DNA of 10,826 bases from a virus (Duplodnaviria > Heunggongvirae > Uroviricota > Caudoviricetes): IMG/VR virus record IMGVR_UViG_3300012983_002979, one strand, 5' to 3'. Of the stretch, positions 304 to 10,826 are shown piece by piece (position 1 is the stretch's first letter; every line of letters begins with the position of its first letter). The notes beneath the pieces are model-generated. The model did not search any database. It worked only from the letters and a program-made list of their open reading frames with translations, and was not told where the DNA came from. A program made the translations under genes and the position numbers.

Positions 304-1497
304 GTGGCTCGGACAACACGCCCTCTGAGCAACACCGAAGTTCTACGTGCTAAAGCGCTAGATAAGGATCTAACACTGCATGATGGTGATGGGCTTTTTC
401 TGATAGTGAAAACAAACGGTAAAAAACTCTGGCGCTTTCGCTATCAACGACCAACTACAAAAAAAAGAACAATGATAGGGATAGGTGCTTTCCCAGCTAT
501 CTCACTTGCTGATGCTAGAAGGTTAAGGGCGAATTATCTTGCTTTGTTAGCTAATGGCCTAGATCCACAAGTTCAAGCTGAACTTATCGAAGAACAACAA
601 CAGATAGCCATAGACAGTATTTTTTCGACTGTTGCATTCAATTGGTTCCAGCTAAAAAGCAAAAGCGTTACCCCTGATTACGCTAAGGATATATGGCGCT
701 CTCTGGAAAAGGACATATTCCCAGCTATCGGGGAGCTCCCTGTCCAGCAAATCAAAGCCCGGACTCTAGTCGAAGCCCTTGAGCCAATAAAAGCACGTGG
801 GGCTCTTGAAACTGTACGTCGCCTGATACAGCGGATTAACGAGATTATGATTTATGCCGTAAATACTGGTCTGCTCGATGCAAATCCTGCATCAGGCGTC
901 GGGATGGCCTTTGAAAAACCCAAAAAACAAAATATGCGGACGCTGAGACCTGAAGAACTGCCGGAACTAATGCGTTCTTTAGCTATGTCAAACTTATCCG
1001 TTCCCACTCGCTGTCTTATAGAATGGCAACTTCTGACCCTCGTGCGTCCATCAGAGGCATCTGGTGCTCGGTGGGCTGAGCTCGATCTGGATGCAAAGCT
1101 CTGGGTGATTCCAAGCGAGCGGATGAAGGCTAAGCGAGAACATATTGTTCCTTTGTCTCCTCAAGCCTTAGACATTCTTATGGTGATGAAACCAATAAGT
1201 GGGCATCGGACATATATTTTTCCGAGTCGAAACGATCCCCAAAAAGCAATGAATAGCCAAACAGCAAATGCGGCATTAAAACGTATTGGATATGGACAAA
1301 AATTGGTTGCTCATGGTTTGCGTTCTATTGCAAGTACAGCGATGAATGAGGCAGGTTTTAATTCAGATGTTATTGAAACTGCACTTTCTCATGTTGACAA
1401 AGACGAAGTTCGGCGTGCATATAATCGCGCTTTATATCTCGAGCAACGTAAAGAGCTTTTAAATTGGTGGGGATTATTTGTCATGAACTCTAAATAA
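304..1497 (+). CDS. int: Tyrosine site-specific recombinase, P4-type integrase (397 aa, GTG start)
   Basis: ORF 304..1497 with AAGGAG 8 nt upstream. N-terminus (GDGLFLIVKTNGKKLWRFRY) resembles the arm-binding domain of P4-family integrases; C-terminus has HGLRS...RAYNRALYLEQR consistent with the catalytic His/Arg/Tyr region. Location next to the tmRNA 3' end is typical. Confidence 0.9.
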   Translation: MARTTRPLSNTEVLRAKALDKDLTLHDGDGLFLIVKTNGKKLWRFRYQRPTTKKRTMIGIGAFPAISLADARRLRANYLALLANGLDPQVQAELIEEQQQIAIDSIFSTVAFNWFQLKSKSVTPDYAKDIWRSLEKDIFPAIGELPVQQIKARTLVEALEPIKARGALETVRRLIQRINEIMIYAVNTGLLDANPASGVGMAFEKPKKQNMRTLRPEELPELMRSLAMSNLSVPTRCLIEWQLLTLVRPSEASGARWAELDLDAKLWVIPSERMKAKREHIVPLSPQALDILMVMKPISGHRTYIFPSRNDPQKAMNSQTANAALKRIGYGQKLVAHGLRSIASTAMNEAGFNSDVIETALSHVDKDEVRRAYNRALYLEQRKELLNWWGLFVMNSK

Positions 1498-1522: not shown

Positions 1523-1546
1523 AAGGCTTTCATTCATGAAAGCCTT
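1523..1546 (-). terminator. Perfect 10-bp-stem hairpin between convergent int and cargo genes; likely terminator for the cargo operon
   Basis: AAGGCTTTCA-ttca-TGAAAGCCTT. On the minus-strand transcript the hairpin is followed by AAAAUUUUU. It overlaps the last codons and stop of cargo gene 2. Confidence 0.45.
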
Positions 1547-2189
1547 CTGTAACAATTATAGGTTCATCTAGCATATATTGTTTTGCAACATATAAAGGAA
1601 AAAAATCTGAGGTATAAAAATTAAAAATATCCCATTGGATATAACACCAAAAAAGAATAACCAAAAGCATCAATGTTATATTTGCCATGGATATATGAAA
1701 ACTCCACAACAAACAAAACAAAAGAGAAAAAATAATCTCAGAGTTAATTATCTTAACTCGAAGATTAGCCTTTTTATCTGATATCTTTTTATCTATCTCC
1801 TTAATAATAAAAAAATCATGGGCATCATTTCGTTTTAACCCCTCATATTTCTCATAAATCCTTAAAATATAGCCATCAAAATCACCAATAAAAACAAGGT
1901 GATTGAAAACTGAAAAGTTTATTTTCTTATGACCATAATTTAAAACCAGAGAAATGATTAGGGCTTGTATTAATTGCAACACTGAAAGCCCTGACAGTAC
2001 TCCCTGTTGAAAATCAAGCACATCCTTAAGGGAAGTTTGATTCATGATATTATATATATCAACATTACCTTTCTGATAAGTCAACATAAAGAAAATTACC
2101 ATGAATAATATCAAAAAACGATGAAGAGGATACTTACAAGTAAGATCCTCAATATATTTCTCTTGGACTTTTTTTGCTAGTTCATCCAT
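1530..2189 (-). CDS. Hypothetical integral membrane protein, ~219 aa, four predicted TM helices (hotspot cargo gene 2)
   Basis: ORF 1530..2222 minus; preferred start is the ATG at 2189-2187 (MDELAKK...), which overlaps the upstream stop as TAATG and has AGGTG 5 nt upstream. Hydrophobic segments FLILFMVIFFMLTY, VLSGLSVLQLIQALIISLVL, IIFSLLFCLLWSF and ITLMLLVILFWCYIQW, with a charged ~60-aa loop between TM2 and TM3. Very AT-rich. Confidence 0.65.
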   Translation of the reverse strand: MDELAKKVQEKYIEDLTCKYPLHRFLILFMVIFFMLTYQKGNVDIYNIMNQTSLKDVLDFQQGVLSGLSVLQLIQALIISLVLNYGHKKINFSVFNHLVFIGDFDGYILRIYEKYEGLKRNDAHDFFIIKEIDKKISDKKANLRVKIINSEIIFSLLFCLLWSFHISMANITLMLLVILFWCYIQWDIFNFYTSDFFPLYVAKQYMLDEPIIVTEGFHE

Positions 2190-3088
2190 TAATACACCTG
2201 TATAAAATATACATCTCCACAATTTGGATCAAAAGCTCCATATTCTATATATGGAGCACCTAAAAACACCATCTCTCTTTCATTCTGAAAATAAGGAAAA
2301 ACCTCTTGAAAATCTTCTTTTGAGGCAAATCTCAGTGTACTTACCGAATTGTTAAAACTGTTTTTCATTTTAGCAGAAAGATATTGCAAATCCATCTCTG
2401 TAACTTTCACTCGATAAATTACAGGGTCACCCAATTTCTTCCTAGTTATAACCCTATGAAAATCATTGGCTTTTGCTCTATTGAACCCAAAAACCTCTGT
2501 GCGATCTGCTGTCAACGATATTTCTAGCGAGCTATCCCCTGAATGATGAGACCTAATAATTGCCAACATTTGATCTATCTCTCTCACAATTGCTCGGTCA
2601 CCATACCGTCGATTAACTGCTGCATCCGGATTTTCCAAAAGTTGCTGATAATCACGAGGTAAAATTTTCTGGCTAGCAATTTGTGCACGTCTAGTCTCTA
2701 CACTTTTACTAATAGTTTCAGCATTTTCAAGACCAGACTGCTGTGCTTCTTTAACTGCATTATTTAGTGCATTTGAAACCCTTTCGACTACTTTTTTTGT
2801 AACATCTTTCTTAGAGAAGAAGTCGATAATATATCCACCTTCTCTAGGGGGCTGTACCAACAGTTCAACATCTTTATAGTAGTCATGATGCATCTTTGCA
2901 TATTTCCAAAGATTACCATGTCTGATGTCAAGATAAGCCCGATCTAAGGCACTTTGCAAATGGCCTAGGCTTTTAGAAAGAGTTCTCAGGGATACTTGGT
3001 GATCAGGTGCAATATCGCCATCAAAATGCAATTCAACAATCGCCACTTCACTTTGCTCCATGTGGAAAAATAAGTCGTTAATGTTCAT
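2189..3088 (-). CDS. Hypothetical protein, 299 aa, no recognisable motif (hotspot cargo gene 1)
   Basis: Long ORF in AT-rich DNA, same orientation as and translationally coupled to the membrane-protein gene. No Walker A, zinc finger or obvious nuclease motif seen by eye. The SD upstream of the ATG at 3088 is weak. Confidence 0.7.
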   Translation of the reverse strand: MNINDLFFHMEQSEVAIVELHFDGDIAPDHQVSLRTLSKSLGHLQSALDRAYLDIRHGNLWKYAKMHHDYYKDVELLVQPPREGGYIIDFFSKKDVTKKVVERVSNALNNAVKEAQQSGLENAETISKSVETRRAQIASQKILPRDYQQLLENPDAAVNRRYGDRAIVREIDQMLAIIRSHHSGDSSLEISLTADRTEVFGFNRAKANDFHRVITRKKLGDPVIYRVKVTEMDLQYLSAKMKNSFNNSVSTLRFASKEDFQEVFPYFQNEREMVFLGAPYIEYGAFDPNCGDVYFIQVY

Positions 3089-3194
3089 ATATTACGTTCA
3101 TATAAAGCACAGATCTACATCTTGAAAATGAATTTTAAAGCTGAATGAGATTTGTGATAATTCTAAAAGACATTTTTATGATACATCGCGCGCA

Positions 3195-3213
3195 GTGCTT
3201 TCCCCGCCTCGCC
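3195..3213. other. cos site: P2/P4-type 19-nt cohesive end (reverse complement of GGCGAGGCGGGGAAAGCAC)
   Basis: 3195-3213 reads GTGCTTTCCCCGCCTCGCC, whose reverse complement matches the P2/P4 cohesive-end sequence as I recall it. Flanked by GC-rich dyad symmetry (3203-3232). Position between int/cargo and psu agrees with P4 organisation. Confidence 0.55.
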
Positions 3214-3314
3214 CGCCCGCTTTGCGGGGCGGTTTTAATGCAGTTGCACTGACACGCTCAGACCGCGCCGGGAATGGTGCGGTCTGCAGAAAATGAGGCA
3301 GGAAAACGCATGCA

Positions 3315-3347
3315 AAGCCATGCACCTTATCGATGCATGGCTTTTTT
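3315..3347 (+). terminator. Rho-independent terminator-like hairpin between cos and the psu stop
   Basis: AAGCCATGCA-ccttatcga-TGCATGGCTT followed by TTTTT on the plus strand. On the minus strand (psu sense) the hairpin is not followed by a U-run, so it would mainly stop rightward transcription. Confidence 0.4.
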
Positions 3348-3377
3348 CAGTAAAAACGGGCGGATTTTCGGGGAATT

Positions 3378-3950
3378 TTACACAGACTGATGTGATGCCA
3401 GTTGCGCACTTTTACGCGAAAAAATCATGTTCTGCGCAGGGGTGAATTTTTCACGGCTGTCATCCACCGAAGCCGCGTCAGGCCTGAATCCGATGGTCGT
3501 TAAAATGTCGCTATCCTGTGCGGAATAATTAATTTTTTCACCCTTCGCAAGCCAGGACAGGAGGGCTTCACGCAGGGCATCTGTGGCACGCTGTATGGCA
3601 CAGTTTCGGGCAATGGCCGTCAGCTCACTGTAGCCCATCAGCTCCGGTGCCAGTGCCGCCGCCAGTGCTGTGCCGTGCTGCTGCATAAAATCATTCAGCC
3701 GGTCGCGGATGCTGATGTGCTGAACGGCTTCATGCGAACGAATATAACGACCGGCGGCCTGATTCACCTGCCATTTTCTGACTTCGATAATATTGCGTAA
3801 TTCGTCCAGGCGACTGACGTTTCTGCCTTCTCCTGACTGAAGCCGCAGATATTCCTGTTCGGCCGCTGCCAGCTCATTTTTGCGTTGCAGCCATGCTGCT
3901 TTGTTATTCTGACAGGTGTCAAAGGCCTGCTGTAAGGCTGTGCTTTCCAT
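3378..3950 (-). CDS. psu: Psu, polarity suppression / capsid decoration protein (190 aa)
   Basis: 190-aa ORF beginning MESTALQQAFDTCQNNKAAW, which I recognise as P4 Psu; length and position (last gene of the psu-delta-sid operon, adjacent to cos) match. Confidence 0.9.
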   Translation of the reverse strand: MESTALQQAFDTCQNNKAAWLQRKNELAAAEQEYLRLQSGEGRNVSRLDELRNIIEVRKWQVNQAAGRYIRSHEAVQHISIRDRLNDFMQQHGTALAAALAPELMGYSELTAIARNCAIQRATDALREALLSWLAKGEKINYSAQDSDILTTIGFRPDAASVDDSREKFTPAQNMIFSRKSAQLASHQSV

Positions 3951-4023
3951 CGTTATCTCTTTCTCATCATGCTGAAGAATAAAAATACGGTGTGCGGCGA
4001 CGGCCGGGGTTAACCGGCAGCCC

Positions 4024-4524
4024 TCATTCCAGACGCAGCGAATATGATTGTGTTTTTAACCGTACTGGCGGCAGTTCCTGTTTTTCATGCAGGCGTTCTG
4101 CCAGTTCGTCCGGTGTGACCGGGCGGACAATGAAGCGGTTGATGGTCTGAAGCGTTTTAAACACCAGACCACAGCCCGGATCCGTGCACACATAAAAACG
4201 TTCGGTGACTTCCTGAGACAGACGCCGCGATGTTCTTGACAGTGCAAGGCCTTTACATCTCCGACAACAATATCCGGTAACAAGCATTCTTTTCGGGCGT
4301 TTCATACTGCCGGAGGCAGAAGTCAGTGAATCGCGGTATCTCTGTTTGCCTGAAATGTATTCCATTCCTGAATCTTTACTGTCAGAGAAAAAGCTTTCAC
4401 TCGCTTCAAATGTCGCAGAGCAATAAATATTCCGGCACTGTGCAATCATTATCTTGGTGCCATCGTCCATGAAATGTGCGCGGCGGGTGTGAGCAACATG
4501 TCCACACGACGGGCAGTAAATCAT
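4024..4524 (-). CDS. delta: Delta, late-gene transcription activator with tandem Ogr-like zinc-finger domains (166 aa)
   Basis: Two Cys-rich Ogr-type halves (CPSCGH...CRNIYC and CCRRCKG...CTDPGC). 166 aa as in P4 Delta. Start overlaps the sid stop as ATGA (4521-4524). Confidence 0.9.
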   Translation of the reverse strand: MIYCPSCGHVAHTRRAHFMDDGTKIMIAQCRNIYCSATFEASESFFSDSKDSGMEYISGKQRYRDSLTSASGSMKRPKRMLVTGYCCRRCKGLALSRTSRRLSQEVTERFYVCTDPGCGLVFKTLQTINRFIVRPVTPDELAERLHEKQELPPVRLKTQSYSLRLE

Positions 4525-5255
4525 GACAGCAGTCCTCTGGCCTTAAGCTCTGCACCCTGCTGGTCTATTTTGTCCTGCCACACCTTGCGCTGTGCCGGTG
4601 TGCCTGCCACCTCATAATCCATGTGCGGGAGTGTTGCCGCTGACAGTCCGGTCAGCCGGAGAACCGGCTCGCCGGTGAGGCTGATTTGCATCTGTTTAAT
4701 TTTCTGTTCCAGCGATGATTTCACCTGCTGCATGACAGCTTTATCGGGTGCGACGTAGCCCTGATGGCCGGTGGTGTTGGCGAGCGGATTTTCCTGTACC
4801 AGGATACTCAGATGCATTGCCCGGACAAGCGCCTCACAGGTTTCATTCAGGGCGTGTTCCAGCTCATGCTCTGCATACAGACTCAGAAGGTGATGATGTG
4901 CCTTCCGGTAGGCGGTGGCCGTGCTGTCACACGCCCCTTTCAGGCGTTCACGTTCGAAATTCAGCACCACGGCCAGATTGTCATATTCCTGTACCAGCTC
5001 CCGGCGTGCCACGCGCTCAATGTGGCGCTGTTTCAGCTCGTCGCTCAGGACACCACCGGCTGCACGAAAGGCCGTGCGCCAGTCGTCAGCGTCGTTTCCG
5101 TCGGCCTGCGCCAGCGCATTTTTTTCCTGCTCTGCCCGTTCAATGGCCGTGACGGTCTCATCCATCAGGCGGGCGTTCTCAAGGTGGGCGGCTCTGGCCT
5201 TTTCCAGTTGTGCCAGTGCGGGTTGCAGATATTCAGGGATGGTGTTGTCAGACAT
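4521..5255 (-). CDS. sid: Sid, external scaffold / capsid size determination protein (244 aa from the ATG at 5255)
   Basis: ORF 4521..5273; the ATG at 5255-5253 has GAGGAG 8 nt upstream and gives 244 aa, the P4 Sid length as I recall it. The track's start at 5273 is a GTG. Coiled-coil-like, Ala/Glu/Leu-rich composition. Confidence 0.85.
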   Translation of the reverse strand: MSDNTIPEYLQPALAQLEKARAAHLENARLMDETVTAIERAEQEKNALAQADGNDADDWRTAFRAAGGVLSDELKQRHIERVARRELVQEYDNLAVVLNFERERLKGACDSTATAYRKAHHHLLSLYAEHELEHALNETCEALVRAMHLSILVQENPLANTTGHQGYVAPDKAVMQQVKSSLEQKIKQMQISLTGEPVLRLTGLSAATLPHMDYEVAGTPAQRKVWQDKIDQQGAELKARGLLS

Positions 5256-5289
5256 TTTCCGGCTCCTCGTCACTTCAGGTTAAGAAAAT

Positions 5290-5345
5290 TGTGACGTACA
5301 CCGGACAACAACACGACGCATTGCAGATGTGCCAGCCCTGACACA
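5290..5345 (-). promoter_or_regulatory. Psid-like late promoter: two TGT-N12-ACA dyads (candidate Delta/Ogr binding sites)
   Basis: TGT(5290-5292)-N12-ACA(5305-5307) and TGT(5328-5330)-N12-ACA(5343-5345), centres ~38 bp apart. Relative to a leftward start near 5281 they would sit near -18 and -55. P2/P4 late promoters are activated through TGT-N12-ACA dyads. Confidence 0.45.
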
Positions 5346-5424
5346 GGAGACTCATCCTCAGACCGGCAAGCCAGGAAAAGGTCGCAGGAAAAACCGGCTT
5401 ACTGTTTGTTTTTTTATATTTTAC

Positions 5425-5528
5425 TGTTCACCTCTGTTCATCATAAGAAAAAAGATAAGTAATACAGTAAGTTAAAGGGTGAACAATCGCAGTAATGACT
5501 GTTCACCGTCTGTTCACCACTGTTCACC
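5425..5528. repeat. Iteron cluster of TGTTCACC octamers; ori-like replication origin
   Basis: TGTTCACC at 5425, 5500, 5511, 5521 (the last three ~10-11 bp apart), a variant TGTTCATC at 5436, and an inverted GGTGAACA at 5478. The same octamer recurs in the crr-like repeats after alpha, ~4.9 kb away. P4 alpha binds TGTTCACC iterons in ori and crr. Confidence 0.5.
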
Positions 5529-5807
5529 CGTTGATGGGCTTTTTGTGCTGTTTACTACTGTTTGTTTTTATTAATTTGCCGGGAATGAATAAGAAAAAAC
5601 GATTTGTATTTCACTATAAAAATTACGAATTGCTTTAAGTGGCTTTAAATGACTTTAAGTGGAGATGAACAAAAAACACACAAGCATTGTAAGGCTGCCG
5701 GAACAAATCCCCCCTGTTGCGTCTGCTGAAAATATTCACAAAATAAAGCGCTACCCGAAGCCGGACGGACTTATCCGGTGCTGTATGGACATTAACGAGG
5801 TAGCCCG

Positions 5808-6074
5808 ATGCAAGCTGTTTTTTCTTCCCCGTCTCCCGCCCCTGTGACGCCACTGATGCCGCTGCCGGACATCACGCAGGAGCGTTTTTTACGTCTGCCG
5901 GAAGTGATGCACCTGTGCGGCCTGTCACGCTCGACCATCTATGAACTCATCCGTAAGGGGGAATTTCCGCCGCAGGTGAGTCTTGGCGGTAAAAATGTGG
6001 CCTGGCTGCACTCTGAAGTCACCGCATGGATGGCCGGCCGCATTGCCGGACGCAAACGGGGGTATGACGCATGA
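5808..6074 (+). CDS. vis: Vis/AlpA-family HTH regulator, excision and late-gene control (88 aa)
   Basis: [50 protein letters not shown] matches the AlpA-type HTH pattern. 88 aa from the ATG at 5808 (GAGG 8 nt upstream); an alternative start at 5856 would give ~72 aa. Confidence 0.75.
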
Positions 6075-6108
6075 TGATGCCCGCTCTGCAAAAAGTCCCT
6101 TTTTCTGG

Positions 6109-6138
6109 CTTGCCTTTTTCCGGCATTTGCGGATATAG
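6109..6138 (+). promoter_or_regulatory. Candidate sigma70 promoter (PLE-like) for the immunity/left operon
   Basis: TTGCCT (6109-6114), 18-bp spacer, TATAGT (6133-6138), ~30 bp upstream of the seqA-like element. Pattern match only. Confidence 0.3.
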
Positions 6139-6329
6139 TTTTTCCGCTGTCGCAAAATCGGCAGCCGGGCGTAGGAACCCGTGTAACTCGAAGGCGACAT
6201 ATGACGCGCCATGCGTCTTTTTTTGTGTCGCAATCAACGCCACAGAGCGCCAGATTATGGTGTGGCGTGTGGTTTGCCGTGCAGGTATGATCCTGTTCGC
6301 AATCGCATGTTATGCCACTGAGTCAATGG

Positions 6330-6400
6330 TAGCTCAGGCGGGGCAGCCTCCGGGCTGGCCGGTATTCTTCGAGGCCGGTATTCCTACCCCCGTCTGGGCT
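6330..6400 (+). ncRNA. cI: CI-like immunity RNA region (seqB-like core); boundaries approximate
   Basis: The central segment 6367-6387 (CTTCGAGGCCGGTATTCCTAC) is complementary to the bipartite GTAGGAA...CTCGAAG(G) motifs at 6171-6194 and 6414-6453, as in P4 seqA/seqB/seqC. RNA ends cannot be set from sequence. Confidence 0.35.
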
Positions 6401-6463
6401 ATCGCCATCGAGCGTAGGAACTCCGGCGATAGCAGTTATTTGCTACTCGAAGGAGACTGCCTT

Positions 6464-6661
6464 ATGGCTACAACCCTTACCCCCTCACACCCTGAATTTG
6501 TCTTTGTGTTTGCGGCTGTCCGTCGCGCAGACCGTCATCCCCGTATCTGCATGCTTCGCACCGTCGCCGGTGATGAACGCAGCGCCCGCCGTTCCCTTGT
6601 CCGTGACTATGTGCTCTCCCTTGCTGCCCGTCTGCCGGTGGTGGAGGTGTCCCGTGCGTAA
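6464..6661 (+). CDS. Small protein (65 aa) in the eta-like position; SD overlapped by the seqC-like element
   Basis: ATG at 6464 preceded by AAGGAG (6450-6455). It is in frame with the 196-aa track ORF, whose upstream part spans the cI region and is unlikely to be coding. Stop overlaps the next gene's start region. Confidence 0.45.
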
Positions 6662-6941
6662 TAAAAAAGCCCCTCAGACCGTCTCAGCGCGTCATGACGC
6701 CCGTGAACACCTCAGCATTGAGGCTTACCATAAGCTCAACCGCGCCAGCGCCGTATCCCAGTTTGTTGGGGGTGATTTGATTCACCGTGAACTCTCCGGC
6801 CTGCATCAGCTCTACATTCCGCATATTTTCAGCTACCTGAATGAAGATATTGATTTTGTGCTGAATGAGCTGAAAGCCAAAGGCCTGTGCCGCGATTTTC
6901 TCGCCCAGCAGAAAGACCGGGGAGACAGGACGCATGTTTGA
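6654..6941 (+). CDS. eps: Epsilon-like protein (helper-prophage derepression), 95 aa from the GTG at 6654
   Basis: Frame of track ORF 6498..6941. GTG at 6654 with GGAGG 6 nt upstream gives 95 aa, the length I recall for P4 epsilon; upstream in-frame ATGs lie inside the preceding small gene. Stop overlaps the orf151 start (ATGTTTGA). Start choice is uncertain. Confidence 0.5.
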
Positions 6942-7389
6942 TTTTCCCCAGCCCGGTGAGATTTACCGTTCTGCCGGTTTTCCCGATGTGGCCGTGGTCG
7001 GCATTCTGGAAGACGGTATTCCGTGGGAAATGCCGTACCGCTGCCCGGAAATTGTCTGGAACCCGTACCGCCGTAAATTCAGTATCCTTGTGCGTATCCT
7101 TGGTGACGGGCGCACCACAGACATCCCGCTGGGGCGTTTTCTGCGGGAATTTACCTGTGACTGTCCTGACCTGTTCAGACGCAGCCCCGTAAACCGGCAT
7201 GCGGTACTGAAAGAAATGGCCGGAGACCCGGAATTACAGAAATGGCGGGAGAAATATCTGGATATTTACCCGCAGGACACTGTTCCGGTCAGCCGGGCGG
7301 CACCGGTGGCGCGGGAATGGCGGGAAATCCCCCGCACGGAGCCTGACCCGGAAATCACACCGGATAACAGTTACCGCAATTATCTGTAA
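6934..7389 (+). CDS. Conserved P4-family protein, orf151-like (151 aa)
   Basis: 151-aa ORF with GGAGACAGGA upstream, coupled to the preceding gene. Length and position between epsilon and alpha match P4 orf151. Confidence 0.8.
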   Translation: MFDFPQPGEIYRSAGFPDVAVVGILEDGIPWEMPYRCPEIVWNPYRRKFSILVRILGDGRTTDIPLGRFLREFTCDCPDLFRRSPVNRHAVLKEMAGDPELQKWREKYLDIYPQDTVPVSRAAPVAREWREIPRTEPDPEITPDNSYRNYL

Positions 7390-7524
7390 TTAAAAAACGA
7401 CACCCGAAAAATTAAATGTGCGTATTCGCGCAGGGATACGCACGTCTTCAGGAGACGCAGATATGCCTTATCAGTTAATGCAACCGGCACGGAATGCAGT
7501 CATCTGTCACAGGGAGGAAAGCAA

Positions 7525-7845
7525 ATGAAAACACCCTTACCGCCCGTCTTACGCGCAGCCCTTTACCGTCGCGCTGTCGCCTGTGCCTGGCTGACCGTGT
7601 GCGAACGTCAGCACCGCTACCCGCATCTCACCCTTGAATCACTGGAGGCGGCCATCGCCGCTGAGCTGGAAGGCTTTTATCTGCGCCAGCACGGTGAGGA
7701 AAAAGGGCGTCAGATAGCCTGTGCCCTGCTGGAAGATTTAATGGAATCCGGCCCCCTGAAGGCCGCGCCGTCGCTGTCCTTTCTCGGGCTGGTTGTGATG
7801 GATGAACTCTGTGCCCGTCACATAAAAGCGCCGGTACTGCACTGA
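7525..7845 (+). CDS. Conserved P4-family hypothetical protein, orf106-like (106 aa)
   Basis: 106-aa ORF with GGGAGG upstream, immediately before alpha. Confidence 0.75.
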
Positions 7846-7859
7846 AGGAGAACAACACC

Positions 7860-10193
7860 ATGAAAATGAACGTAACCGCCACCGTCAGCCATGCGCTCGG
7901 CCACTGGCCGCGTATTCTCCCGGCGCTGGGGATTCAGGTGCTGAAAAACCGTCATCAGCCCTGTCCGGTCTGTGGCGGGAGTGACCGCTTCCGTTTTGAT
8001 GACAGGGAGGGGCGCGGCACCTGGTACTGCAATCAGTGTGGTGCCGGTGACGGCCTGAAACTGGTTGAAAAGGTGTTTGGTGTTTCCCCGTCCGACGCGG
8101 CCGCAAAGGTGGCTGCCGTGACCGGCAGCCTGCCACCGGCTGACCCGGCAGTGACGACCGCCGCCGTTGCTGAAACAGACGCTGCCCGGAAGAGCGCCGC
8201 CGCACTGGCACAAACCCTGATGGCGAAAACCCGTCCCGGAACCGGTAACGCCTACCTGACCCGCAAGGGCTTTCCCGGCCGGGAATGCCGGATGCTGACC
8301 GGCACACTCAGAGCCGGTGGCGTGAGCTGGCGTGCCGGTGACCTTGTGGTGCCACTGTATGACGACAGCGGCGAACTGGTTAACCTTCAGTTAATCAGTG
8401 CTGACGGCCGTAAGCGCACCCTGAAAGGCGGACAGGTCAGGGGCACCTGTCACACCCTTGAAGGACAGAATCAGGCCGGAAAACGTCTGTGGATAGCGGA
8501 GGGATACGCGACCGCACTTACCGTACATCACCTGACCGGTGAAACGGTGATGGTGGCGCTTTCTTCCGTGAACCTCCTTTCTCTGGCCAGCCTTGCCCGG
8601 CAGAAGCATCCGGCCTGTCAGATTGTCCTTGCCGCAGACCGTGACCTCAGCGGTGACGGCCAGAAAAAAGCCGCCGCAGCCGCAGATGCGTGTGAAGGTG
8701 TTGTTGCCCTGCCGCCGGTCTTCGGTGACTGGAATGATGCCTTCACGCAGTACGGCGGGGAGGTCACCCGTAAGGCCATTTACGATGCCATCCGGCCACC
8801 GGCTGAAAGCCCGTTCGACACCATGAGCGAAGCAGAGTTTTCCGCCATGAGTACCAGCGAAAAGGCCATGCGTATCTATGAGCATTACGGCGAGGCGCTC
8901 GCGGTCGATGCCAACGGCCAGCTTCTGTCCCGCTATGAAAATGGTGTCTGGAAGGTGCTGCCGCCACAGGACTTTGCCCGGGATGTGGCCGGGCTGTTTC
9001 AGCGTCTGCGCGCGCCGTTCTCCTCCGGGAAGGTGGCCTCCGTGGTGGACACCCTGAAGCTGATTATTCCGCAGCAGGAAGCCCCCTCCCGCCGCCTGAT
9101 TGGCTTTCGTAACGGTGTGCTCGACACGCAGAACGGCACGTTCCACCCGCACAGTCCGTCACACTGGATGCGCACCCTGTGCGATGTGGATTTCACCCCG
9201 CCGGTGGACGGTGAAACGCTGGAAACCCACGCCCCCGCGTTCTGGCGCTGGCTTGACCGTGCCGCCGGTGGCCGTGCGGAAAAACGCGACGTGATTCTGG
9301 CCGCACTGTTTATGGTGCTGGCAAACCGCTACGACTGGCAGCTCTTTCTGGAGGTGACCGGTCCCGGCGGCAGCGGCAAAAGTATCATGGCCGAAATAGC
9401 CACCCTGCTGGCCGGGGAGGATAACGCCACGTCGGCCACCATCGAGACGCTGGAATCCCCGCGTGAACGTGCCGCGTTAACTGGCTTCTCACTGATACGC
9501 CTGCCGGACCAGGAAAAATGGAGCGGCGACGGTGCCGGACTCAAGGCCATCACCGGCGGCGATGCGGTGTCCGTGGACCCGAAATACCGGGATGCGTACT
9601 CCACGCATATCCCGGCGGTGATTCTGGCCGTGAACAATAACCCGATGCGCTTCACCGACCGCAGCGGCGGCGTGTCACGCCGGCGGGTGATTATTCACTT
9701 CCCGGAACAGATAGCCCCGCAGGAGCGCGACCCGCAGCTTAAGGACAAAATCACCCGCGAGCTGGCGGTCATCGTGCGTCACCTGATGCAGAAATTCAGC
9801 GACCCGATGCTCGCCCGGTCACTGCTTCAGTCCCAGCAGAACTCAGACGAGGCACTGAACATCAAACGGGATGCCGACCCGACGTTTGATTTTATCGGCT
9901 ATCTGGAAACCCTGCCGCAGACCAGCGGCATGTATATGGGGAACGCCAGTATCATCCCGCGTAATTACCGTAAATACCTCTATCACGCCTATCTGGCCTA
10001 CATGGAGGCAAACGGCTACCGGAATGTACTCAGTCTGAAAATGTTCGGGCTGGGGCTGCCGGTGATGCTGAAGGAATACGGACTGAATTACGAGAAGCGC
10101 CATACCAAACAGGGGATACAGACCAACCTGACGCTGAAAGAGGAAAGCTACGGCGACTGGCTGCCAAAATGTGACGACCCTGCAACAACCTGA
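7860..10193 (+). CDS. alpha: Alpha: bifunctional primase-helicase replication protein (777 aa)
   Basis: N-terminal zinc-binding primase motif (CPVCGGSDRFRFDD...WYCNQCG), TOPRIM-like region (LWIAEGYATALT...LAADRD), Walker A (VTGPGGSGKS) in a D5-like helicase domain. 777 aa as in P4 alpha. Confidence 0.95.
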   Translation: MKMNVTATVSHALGHWPRILPALGIQVLKNRHQPCPVCGGSDRFRFDDREGRGTWYCNQCGAGDGLKLVEKVFGVSPSDAAAKVAAVTGSLPPADPAVTTAAVAETDAARKSAAALAQTLMAKTRPGTGNAYLTRKGFPGRECRMLTGTLRAGGVSWRAGDLVVPLYDDSGELVNLQLISADGRKRTLKGGQVRGTCHTLEGQNQAGKRLWIAEGYATALTVHHLTGETVMVALSSVNLLSLASLARQKHPACQIVLAADRDLSGDGQKKAAAAADACEGVVALPPVFGDWNDAFTQYGGEVTRKAIYDAIRPPAESPFDTMSEAEFSAMSTSEKAMRIYEHYGEALAVDANGQLLSRYENGVWKVLPPQDFARDVAGLFQRLRAPFSSGKVASVVDTLKLIIPQQEAPSRRLIGFRNGVLDTQNGTFHPHSPSHWMRTLCDVDFTPPVDGETLETHAPAFWRWLDRAAGGRAEKRDVILAALFMVLANRYDWQLFLEVTGPGGSGKSIMAEIATLLAGEDNATSATIETLESPRERAALTGFSLIRLPDQEKWSGDGAGLKAITGGDAVSVDPKYRDAYSTHIPAVILAVNNNPMRFTDRSGGVSRRRVIIHFPEQIAPQERDPQLKDKITRELAVIVRHLMQKFSDPMLARSLLQSQQNSDEALNIKRDADPTFDFIGYLETLPQTSGMYMGNASIIPRNYRKYLYHAYLAYMEANGYRNVLSLKMFGLGLPVMLKEYGLNYEKRHTKQGIQTNLTLKEESYGDWLPKCDDPATT

Positions 10194-10209
10194 CCATCAT
10201 GACTCATCT

Positions 10210-10234
10210 GACCGGCATCTGCCGGTCTTTTTTT
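10210..10234 (+). terminator. Rho-independent terminator after alpha
   Basis: GACCGGCA-tc-TGCCGGTC followed by TTTTTTT, 17 nt after the alpha stop. Confidence 0.6.
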
Positions 10235-10252
10235 ATCCCTGAATTCCCCGAA

Positions 10253-10554
10253 GGTGAACAATCCACTGTTCACCCTTCACCGTATATTCACCCGTTATCA
10301 CACTGAAATTAAAAGAGAAAAACGAAAGGTGAACAGTGTGAACAATCAAATCAAAAAAAACTTTTTTCTCCCTGTGTGATTTTCAGTACGGGGGATTAAT
10401 CACCGGTATGAGTCACACCGGCAGAATGCCGGAGGTGAAGAATCGAATGTTCACCCTTCACCCATTATTCACCACCTATCCAACTGAAATAAAAGGAGAA
10501 AACAGAAAGGTGAACAGTGTGAACAGTTCTTTCGAAAAAAAATTTTTTTCCTGT
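10253..10554. repeat. crr-like cis replication region: two ~120-bp direct repeats (10253-10375 and 10433-10554) separated by ~57 bp, each with TGTTCACC/GGTGAACA iterons
   Basis: The two units align along their length (GGTGAACAATCCACTGTTCACCCTTCACC...GAAAGGTGAACAGTGTGAACA...CCTGT versus GGTGAAGAATCGAATGTTCACCCTTCACC...GAAAGGTGAACAGTGTGAACA...CCTGT). P4 crr is two 120-bp direct repeats ~60 bp apart carrying the alpha-binding octamer. Confidence 0.6.
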
Positions 10555-10612
10555 ACGATATAGCATCAATCCAAGTAAAAATGCGTTTTCATTTCACATT
10601 AACTTACAGCCA

Positions 10613-10634
10613 TTGGTATACGATTAGGTATACG
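10613..10634. promoter_or_regulatory. Third copy of the 22-bp TTGGTATACGnTTAGGTATACG motif; candidate integrase arm site near the right end
   Basis: TTGGTATACGATTAGGTATACG differs by 1 nt from the 233-254 copy. Confidence 0.35.
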
Positions 10635-10687: not shown

Positions 10688-10707
10688 TTCAAACTCCGCC
10701 AGCCCAC
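10688..10707 (+). other. Degenerate copy of the ssrA 3' end; putative attR or junction with a neighbouring element
   Basis: TTCAAACTCCGCCAGCCCAC versus ssrA TTCAACTCCCGCCAGCTCCAC (99-119). Followed at 10741-10774 by a terminator-like hairpin resembling the one at 154-189. Confidence 0.35.
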
Positions 10708-10740
10708 TTTTTAGTTGTTTGAAGTTCAATGAAGTCTACT

Positions 10741-10774
10741 AAGCCCACACAGCACAAGCTCTGCGGGCTTTTTT
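10741..10774 (+). terminator. Terminator-like hairpin plus T-run, paralogous to the ssrA terminator
   Basis: AAGCCC...GGGCTT then TTTTTT; similar in sequence and layout to 154-189. Confidence 0.35.
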
Positions 10775-10826
10775 ACGTCTATTGTCGTCCAGTGAGAATT
10801 GCTGAGAACTACGAGTTATGGCACCC

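Follow-up and report, generated by a model that had tools for sequence, protein, structure and literature searches.

The window, a stretch of 10,826 nucleotides of viral DNA, very probably carries at positions 3188-3345 the cos packaging site of a P4-type satellite prophage, within which positions 3195-3213 would be the 19-nt cohesive end. This reading draws on sequence identity, position, pattern of conservation and an intact P4 backbone, each of them observed directly, and the site is a real, ordinary and already known one, namely the cos of a P4-type satellite adjoining a known variable cargo hotspot. While a preliminary description made from the letters of the DNA had flagged 3195-3232 as cos with coordinates that are exact, that interval is only part of the cos region, which spans approximately 3188-3345 and is made up as follows.

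3188-3194, no strand: GCGCGCA, the left edge of the conserved core and proposed nick half-site for the plus-strand cut at 3194/3195
3195-3213, minus strand: cohesive end, GGCGAGGCGGGGAAAGCAC, an exact match to P4 1-19 and to P2 cosL
3213-3232, plus strand: GC-rich dyad CCGCCCGCTTTGCGGGGCGG, part of the cos core, with its left arm (3214-3220) as the proposed second nick half-site
3233-3248, plus strand: right edge of the helper-shared core, TTTTAATGCAGTTGCA, with two proximal TGCA (3239 and 3245)
3310-3337, plus strand: distal ATGCA array of three repeats (3310, 3320 and 3333; spacings of 10 and 13 nt), a candidate helper-terminase binding array
3303-3345, no strand: strong hairpin with arms 3314-3324 and 3334-3344, flanked by an A-run and a T-run on opposite sides; it lies 33 nt downstream of the psu stop
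3188-3345, no strand: the whole putative cos, as the union of core, spacer (with a hairpin at 3259-3286) and distal array

On the plus strand, positions 3195-3213 read GTGCTTTCCCCGCCTCGCC, the reverse complement of which, GGCGAGGCGGGGAAAGCAC, is present in a single copy across the window. The P4 record (NC_001609; 11,624 bp) opens with GGCGAGGCGGGGAAAGCAC, where the minus strand from 3213 to 3195 corresponds to P4 positions 1-19, and the window crosses the joined P4 ends, with 3214 onward being the P4 right end from 11624 downward. A BLAST comparison of 3090-3400 with phage records matched 3214-3400 to P4 11438-11624, which are its last 187 bases, on the minus strand with 97.9% identity. In P2 (NC_001895), the annotated cosL (1-19) and cosR both consist of exactly the same 19 bases, and the annotated cos of phage 186 (NC_001317), GGCGTGGCGGGGAAAGCAT, differs from the 19-mer at 2 of 19 positions. 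The preliminary description had placed the reverse complement of the P2/P4 cohesive end at 3195-3213, and comparison with the P2, P4 and 186 sites bears this out, as both the coordinates and the sequence are exact against P4 and P2. A chance match within GC-rich intergenic DNA can be discarded as an explanation of the 19-mer, as none of 200 dinucleotide-preserving shuffles contained it even with up to three mismatches allowed, and the flanks carry on the P4 sequence.

The agreement extends through the core, where 3188-3248 follows the consensus of 100 distinct cos sites at every invariant column and matches P4 base for base except at 3194, which is A in the window and in P2 and G in P4. Among these 100 sites, the central CGCGC of GCGCGCA is invariant or conserved in at least 90% and the terminal A in at least 90%, and GTTGCA is largely conserved, most of its columns at 90% or above, although the search pattern had left it free. 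The segment TTTTAATGCAGTTGCA is common to the window, P4 and 186, and P2 shares it only as far as TTTTAATGCA. Ziermann and Calendar, in a 1990 paper (Gene 96:9), are reportedly the source of the conserved P2/P4 cos core of approximately 55 bp. A published "55-bp core" of cos is cited in PMC5694545, and P4 circles have been described as being cut at a 55-bp cos to give 19-nt cohesive ends (PMC2231350). In the spacer, the hairpin at 3259-3286 (CAGACCGCGCC / GGTGCGGTCTG) is kept in P4 with wobble changes; in phage 186, its place is taken by another palindrome, CGCCAGCTCTGGCG.

The element in which this site lies is a complete P4-type satellite prophage of approximately 10.6 kb, integrated at the 3' end of ssrA, with the following features around cos.

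1-120: 3' end of ssrA (tmRNA), the attachment site
304-1497, plus strand: integrase (Pfam)
1530-3088, minus strand: cargo, two overlapping genes of 299 aa (2189-3088) and 219-230 aa (1530-2189 or 1530-2222)
3089-3187, minus strand: cargo leader, AT-rich and variable, the first hotspot DNA, with no P4 similarity and near-zero conservation among P4-like elements
3378-3950, minus strand: psu (Pfam Psu, 4e-88)
4024-4524, minus strand: delta (Pfam Ogr_Delta, 7e-22)
4521-5273, minus strand: sid, 99% identical to P4 Sid
3378-5273, minus strand: late operon sid-delta-psu, from Pfam and P4 identity

Pfam also recognises AlpA, Ash and the domains of a 777-aa alpha primase, and orf151 and the 120-bp crr repeats in the style of P4 are likewise present. 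The P4 core gene set was found in full (int, psu, delta, sid, alpA, the epsilon region, alpha and CI/C4 RNA), as were the marks of an excisable replicon of packageable length, namely the ssrA 3' end, paired repeats and a unit of approximately 10.6 kb. The flanking 50-nt repeats, at 155-204 and 10741-10790, resemble the ssrA terminator, are 78% identical and lie 10,586 nt apart, which gives this unit length, and arm-type integrase repeats (ATTGGTATACGNTTAGGTATACG) are found at 232-254 and 10612-10634. A degenerate copy of the ssrA 3' end is seen near 10690-10708. Rfam places isrK and the C4 antisense RNA (P4 CI immunity) at 6146-6223 and 6322-6409, in or beside an Ash/Icd-like ORF. From cos to crr, 3214-10548 aligns collinearly with P4 (97.75% identity, 7,345 aligned bases), and the DNA to the left of 3188 (cargo, int and att) has no detectable similarity to P4. 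The window is thus mosaic with respect to P4, with cos as the breakpoint for a swap larger than the cargo alone (cargo, int and att). The nearest complete genome is that of E. coli 14EC001 (NZ_CP024127), which contains the same element at 99.2-99.96% identity. The 14EC001 copy (L003 11742-13051) has a 1.3-kb IS3-family insertion at window position ~6933-6935, between the epsilon-like gene and orf151, which is absent here.

Many genomic P4-like elements are degraded, as in locus L005 with its frameshifted delta and an internal stop in alpA, and no helper is visible in the window, so that the site could be conceived of as an inactive relic in a domesticated satellite remnant that is no longer mobilisable. 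This is very improbable, as every backbone ORF is intact and of the same length as in P4, the cos barely departs from that of functional P4 (97.9% identity across 187 nt in addition to the exact 19-mer), and a unit of approximately 10.6 kb suits the small capsid. 

The distribution of the site among bacterial genomes and viral contigs locates the edge of what is conserved. In a megablast search of 3195-3500 against 5,426 complete E. coli genomes, 2,242 matched and 1,065 covered at least 80% of the query, the threshold for calling a match P4-like. Approximately 1,180 further genomes matched partially, and those sampled covered only the first ~48-119 nt, mostly 48-66, which is the core also found in helper prophages. 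Viral contigs were scanned for a pattern in which most of the 19-mer and of TTTTAATGC was prescribed and the 19 nt between them could vary, such that the conservation of these two segments cannot be assessed in this sample. The scan returned 120 loci, with a spacing of exactly 19 in all of them, and 106 distinct sites of 520 nt were taken from viral contigs, 14 of them P4-like and 92 P2-like. In the 14 P4-like sites, the information per column is close to its maximum across GCGCGCA (3188-3194) and everything to its right up to and including psu, and it is approximately zero at 3187 and leftward, which sets the edge of conservation at 3187/3188, 7 nt to the left of the 19-mer. The pattern is reversed in P2-like sites, where the GCGCGCA (portal gene) side is moderately conserved and conservation falls after TTTTAATGCAGTTGCAT. 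By these alignments, the core common to satellites and helpers is ~3188-3250.

P4-like loci with the same cos-psu segment have different genes between int and cos. The view of cos as a hotspot boundary, advanced in the preliminary description, is supported at nucleotide resolution by the collapse of conservation in the 14 P4-like sites, with the refinement that, on these alignments, the boundary is the edge of the conserved core (3187/3188) and not the 19-mer itself. Its statement that cos separates the late operon from the cargo also holds, with sid-delta-psu at 3378-5273 (minus strand) on one side and the low-GC cargo at 1530-3088 (minus strand) on the other. Variable hotspot DNA starts directly outside the core, probably because the core alone must be kept. 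The adjacency of cos and hotspot is said to have been published by Ziermann and Calendar in 1990, who are credited with it alongside Rousset and colleagues in 2022. The link is stated by Rousset et al. (2022; PMC9122126), whose Fig. 1A marks conserved and variable cos-proximal sequence, and it is repeated in later literature. What the present comparison adds is the exact breakpoint, 3187/3188, and the extent of the block that, against P4 itself, also takes in int and att.

The sides of the core at which variable DNA is found can be set out for both classes. In P4-like elements, the hotspot adjoins the GCGCGCA side, at most 7 nt from the nick. In helpers, the variable locus (old/tin in P2) is found on the side of the core that bears the dyad and the ATGCA array, beyond approximately relative position +150 (loci L011-L130; P2 right end). 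P4 has its variable gop-beta-cII at the left end and P2 has old/tin at the right end, which places them on opposite sides of the core.

The dyad at 3213-3232 consists of CCGCCC, GCTTTGCG and GGGCGG followed by TTTT, and it is the sole terminator-like site reported by a consensus scan in 2900-3600, with 6 G-C pairs, an 8-nt loop, the tail TTTTAATG and a T-run of only 4. The caution in the preliminary description that this dyad could pass for a terminator was well placed, as the scan does call it terminator-like and the comparative data give no positive evidence of selection for a hairpin. It could nonetheless be a working intrinsic terminator besides lying in cos, one that stops plus-strand transcription from the hotspot before it runs antisense into psu; the consensus requirements are present in the 6 G-C pairs and TTTT, the stem can still be formed in 85-89% of pair cells across 100 cos sites, and in L006, a P4-like locus with cargo reading toward cos, the scan finds no other terminator before the dyad. 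This is unlikely in view of how the dyad varies, where its left arm, C[C/T]GCCCGCTT, is nearly invariant across 100 distinct sites and its right arm bears nearly all of the variation, in changes that are mostly one-sided and often break a pair, with up to 35% of sequences unpaired at one pair. No covariation was seen in the 6-bp register across the 100 sites, the score being equal to the shuffle mean and reached in 305 of 500 shuffles; a bulged 8-bp register was marginal (16 of 500 shuffles), which is within the range that the tool gives for unstructured alignments. The predicted fold of the 70-nt cos segment has no advantage over that of shuffled sequence (z -0.19 and -0.96), and the adjacent segment 3250-3360 gives z -5.2 on the minus strand and -3.9 on the plus strand.

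The gene arrangement also speaks against termination at the dyad. No plus-strand gene reads into it here, as the two cargo genes run on the minus strand and int, the closest plus-strand gene, ends at 1497. Two of the three P4-like loci with cos-directed cargo (L004 and L005) have a stronger terminator of their own upstream of cos, and P2 and 186 annotate their own terminators ahead of cos, tQ (160-181) and tW (164-187), respectively. Taken together, these lines argue against the dyad having been selected as a terminator, though it may still act as a backstop, since the stem can form in most of the variants. Two further roles were considered and rejected. The first, termination of the helper portal/terminase operon, fails as tQ and tW are already annotated between the portal gene and cos. 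The second, termination of the psu operon, fails as no minus-strand T-run follows the dyad and the far stronger hairpin at 3314-3344 lies between psu and cos. An apparent compensatory change from G-C to A-T in the dyad of 186 was likewise dismissed as a general feature, as most variants pair G with T there. Searches of Rfam at the gathering threshold and, for 3090-3400, at permissive settings yielded nothing at cos beyond chance matches below threshold.

A different account of the dyad is suggested by symmetry around the nicks. GCGCGCA (3188-3194) and GCGGGCG, the reverse complement of 3214-3220, are related by rotational symmetry, and the contexts of the nicks are GCGCGCA/G on the top strand and GCGGGCR/G on the bottom strand. 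In the window, these agree at 6 of 8 positions (P ~0.013, which is modest for a single sequence), and five of the matched half-site positions agree in 94-100% of the 100 sites. Such two-fold symmetry would be expected of a site cut by two nuclease protomers. GCGCGCA most likely has its rotational counterpart in the invariant left arm, the two forming half-sites for the two nicks, and only the left dyad arm would be invariant because the half-site symmetry flanks the nicks.

The second conserved element of the site lies further to the right. To the right of the core, TGCA is overrepresented 9-10 fold, with 4.57 copies per site as opposed to 0.46 in P4-like sites and 3.83 as opposed to 0.41 in P2-like sites, and there is no such enrichment to the left of the core or further to the right. 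These copies fall into a proximal pair at relative positions 44 and 50 (window 3239 and 3245), with a mean of 1.8 copies per site at relative positions 40-59 in both classes, and a group of two or three ATGCA at relative positions 115-140 (window 3310, 3320 and 3333). When P2-like sites with spacers less than 60% identical were considered (n=44), 41 of them were found to keep at least two TGCA at relative positions 100-149, where successive copies are most often 10 nt apart and the first one lies mostly at 115-117, and at 116 in the window. The array recurs in P2 and 186 at an equal distance. In the window, the triple pattern occurs only once and was matched in none of 200 shuffles, and ATGCA overall is not enriched there. 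The array lies approximately 97 nt from the nearer nick and is kept by helpers and satellites across unrelated spacers (loci L011-L130, P2 and 186).

From this conservation, which is the basis for the assignment, the array is most likely a candidate terminase-binding subsite. The overlapping hairpin could explain conservation of the array in P4-like sites, but not in P2-like ones. The arms of this hairpin (3314-3344) form a perfect inverted repeat of 11 nt that is fully conserved in P4-like sites, and the hairpin at 3303-3345 is likely a terminator between psu and cos that overlaps the array. Its 9-nt loop causes the terminator scan to miss it. Judged by its sequence, with T6 on the side opposite the A-run, its stronger orientation as a terminator is on the plus strand, facing transcription from cos and not the psu strand.

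These observations can be joined in a tentative model of a bipartite cos, in which GCGSGCR half-sites would flank the 19-nt stagger and a distal array of two or three ATGCA would be phased at one helical turn; we regard it as possible, with the odds somewhat against it. If it is true, the apparent "terminator" dyad would partly be a by-product of the second half-site. If the array binds the small subunit of terminase, it would be the minimal element that a satellite must copy to hijack packaging, and this would explain why the P4 hotspot abuts the core on one side only. A search of the papers available found no description of cos subsites in P2-like phages, and the 1990 cos paper may already cover the array or the symmetry.

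Because of the near-identity to P4, the packaging steps for the window element can be inferred as follows. The element of approximately 10.6 kb would excise and circularise, and the terminase of a P2-type helper would bind cos. GCGCGCA and the invariant left dyad arm would serve as half-sites for two nicking events, and the ATGCA repeats as the site of terminase binding; in this element, cleavage is predicted from sequence, as are the function of the half-sites and terminase binding by the array. The two nicks, 19 nt apart, would fall at 3194/3195 on the plus strand and 3214/3213 on the minus strand to leave 5' overhangs, a polarity that follows the annotation of the 186 record, in which the 19-mer is nicked at its 5' end on the top strand and at its 3' end on the bottom strand. 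Linear DNA with 5' single-stranded ends would then be packaged in a small capsid. The packaged molecule would open with the 19-mer and the 106-nt cargo leader, continue through both cargo genes, int and att, and finish with sid, delta, psu and the right-hand portion of cos. The cargo would thus sit at the left end by P4 convention, its first start codon lying 125 nt in from the terminus, and psu at the right end. In P4, the preferred packaging substrate has been reported to be closed circles (PMC2231350).

The cargo itself has a GC content of 28-39%, and the promoter-like sites of its leader fire away from cos, including a minus-strand site at 3160-3132. Both of its proteins fall below the family threshold in Pfam, PADLOC and NCBIfam, and they match phrog_28486 and phrog_31922, which are PHROGs without assigned function. 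This same cargo, from NZ_CP024127, is listed in Table S1 of Rousset et al. (2022; PMC9122126) as WP_024238668 and WP_024238669, "hypothetical + hypothetical". It may be regarded as an uncharacterised candidate anti-phage system, and the two cargo genes beside cos are the more interesting lead from this region. For the rest, the site matters in that recognising cos establishes where the packaged satellite genome begins and ends and which way it runs, and 3187/3188 offers a precise anchor for delimiting hotspot cargo. It is also a warning for annotation, as the only terminator-like site that the scan reports in 2900-3600 is part of a packaging signal and the stronger hairpin beside psu is missed.

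A cos shared between a P2-type helper and a P4-type satellite, with an adjacent defence hotspot, is established biology and raises no new question by itself. The closest known system is P4 (NC_001609), which has the same 19-mer and differs by only 4 substitutions in 187 nt across the dyad, T-run, spacer hairpin and ATGCA array; there, cos likewise lies downstream of psu, and the backbone is 97.75% identical, as mentioned above. The two differ on the other side of cos, where P4 has gop-beta-cII with its own int and attP, while the window has two uncharacterised genes and an integrase beside ssrA. With respect to the psu-int defence hotspot of P4-like elements (Rousset et al., 2022; PMC9122126), nothing of substance differs.

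P2 and 186 (Peduoviridae) share with the window a core of approximately 55-60 bp (GCGCGCR, the 19-mer, the dyad and TTTTAATGCA) and the fixed 19-nt interval between the 19-mer and the T-run. Phage 186 is unlike the window in having 2 substitutions in the 19-mer and a variant dyad, while P2 has a different dyad loop and is without GTTGCA. In both helpers, the portal gene neighbours GCGCGCA, and the variable locus follows the distal array on the dyad side, opposite to the hotspot of P4.

A more distant parallel is the cos of phage lambda (cosN, cosB and cosQ), in which staggered nicks are made in a partly symmetric site with accessory terminase repeats nearby. The logic is the same as that proposed here, where the roles of the subsites are predicted from the comparisons above. 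The two have no sequence relationship, the overhang is 12 nt in lambda as opposed to 19 nt here, and P4 differs further in its preference for closed circles (PMC2231350).
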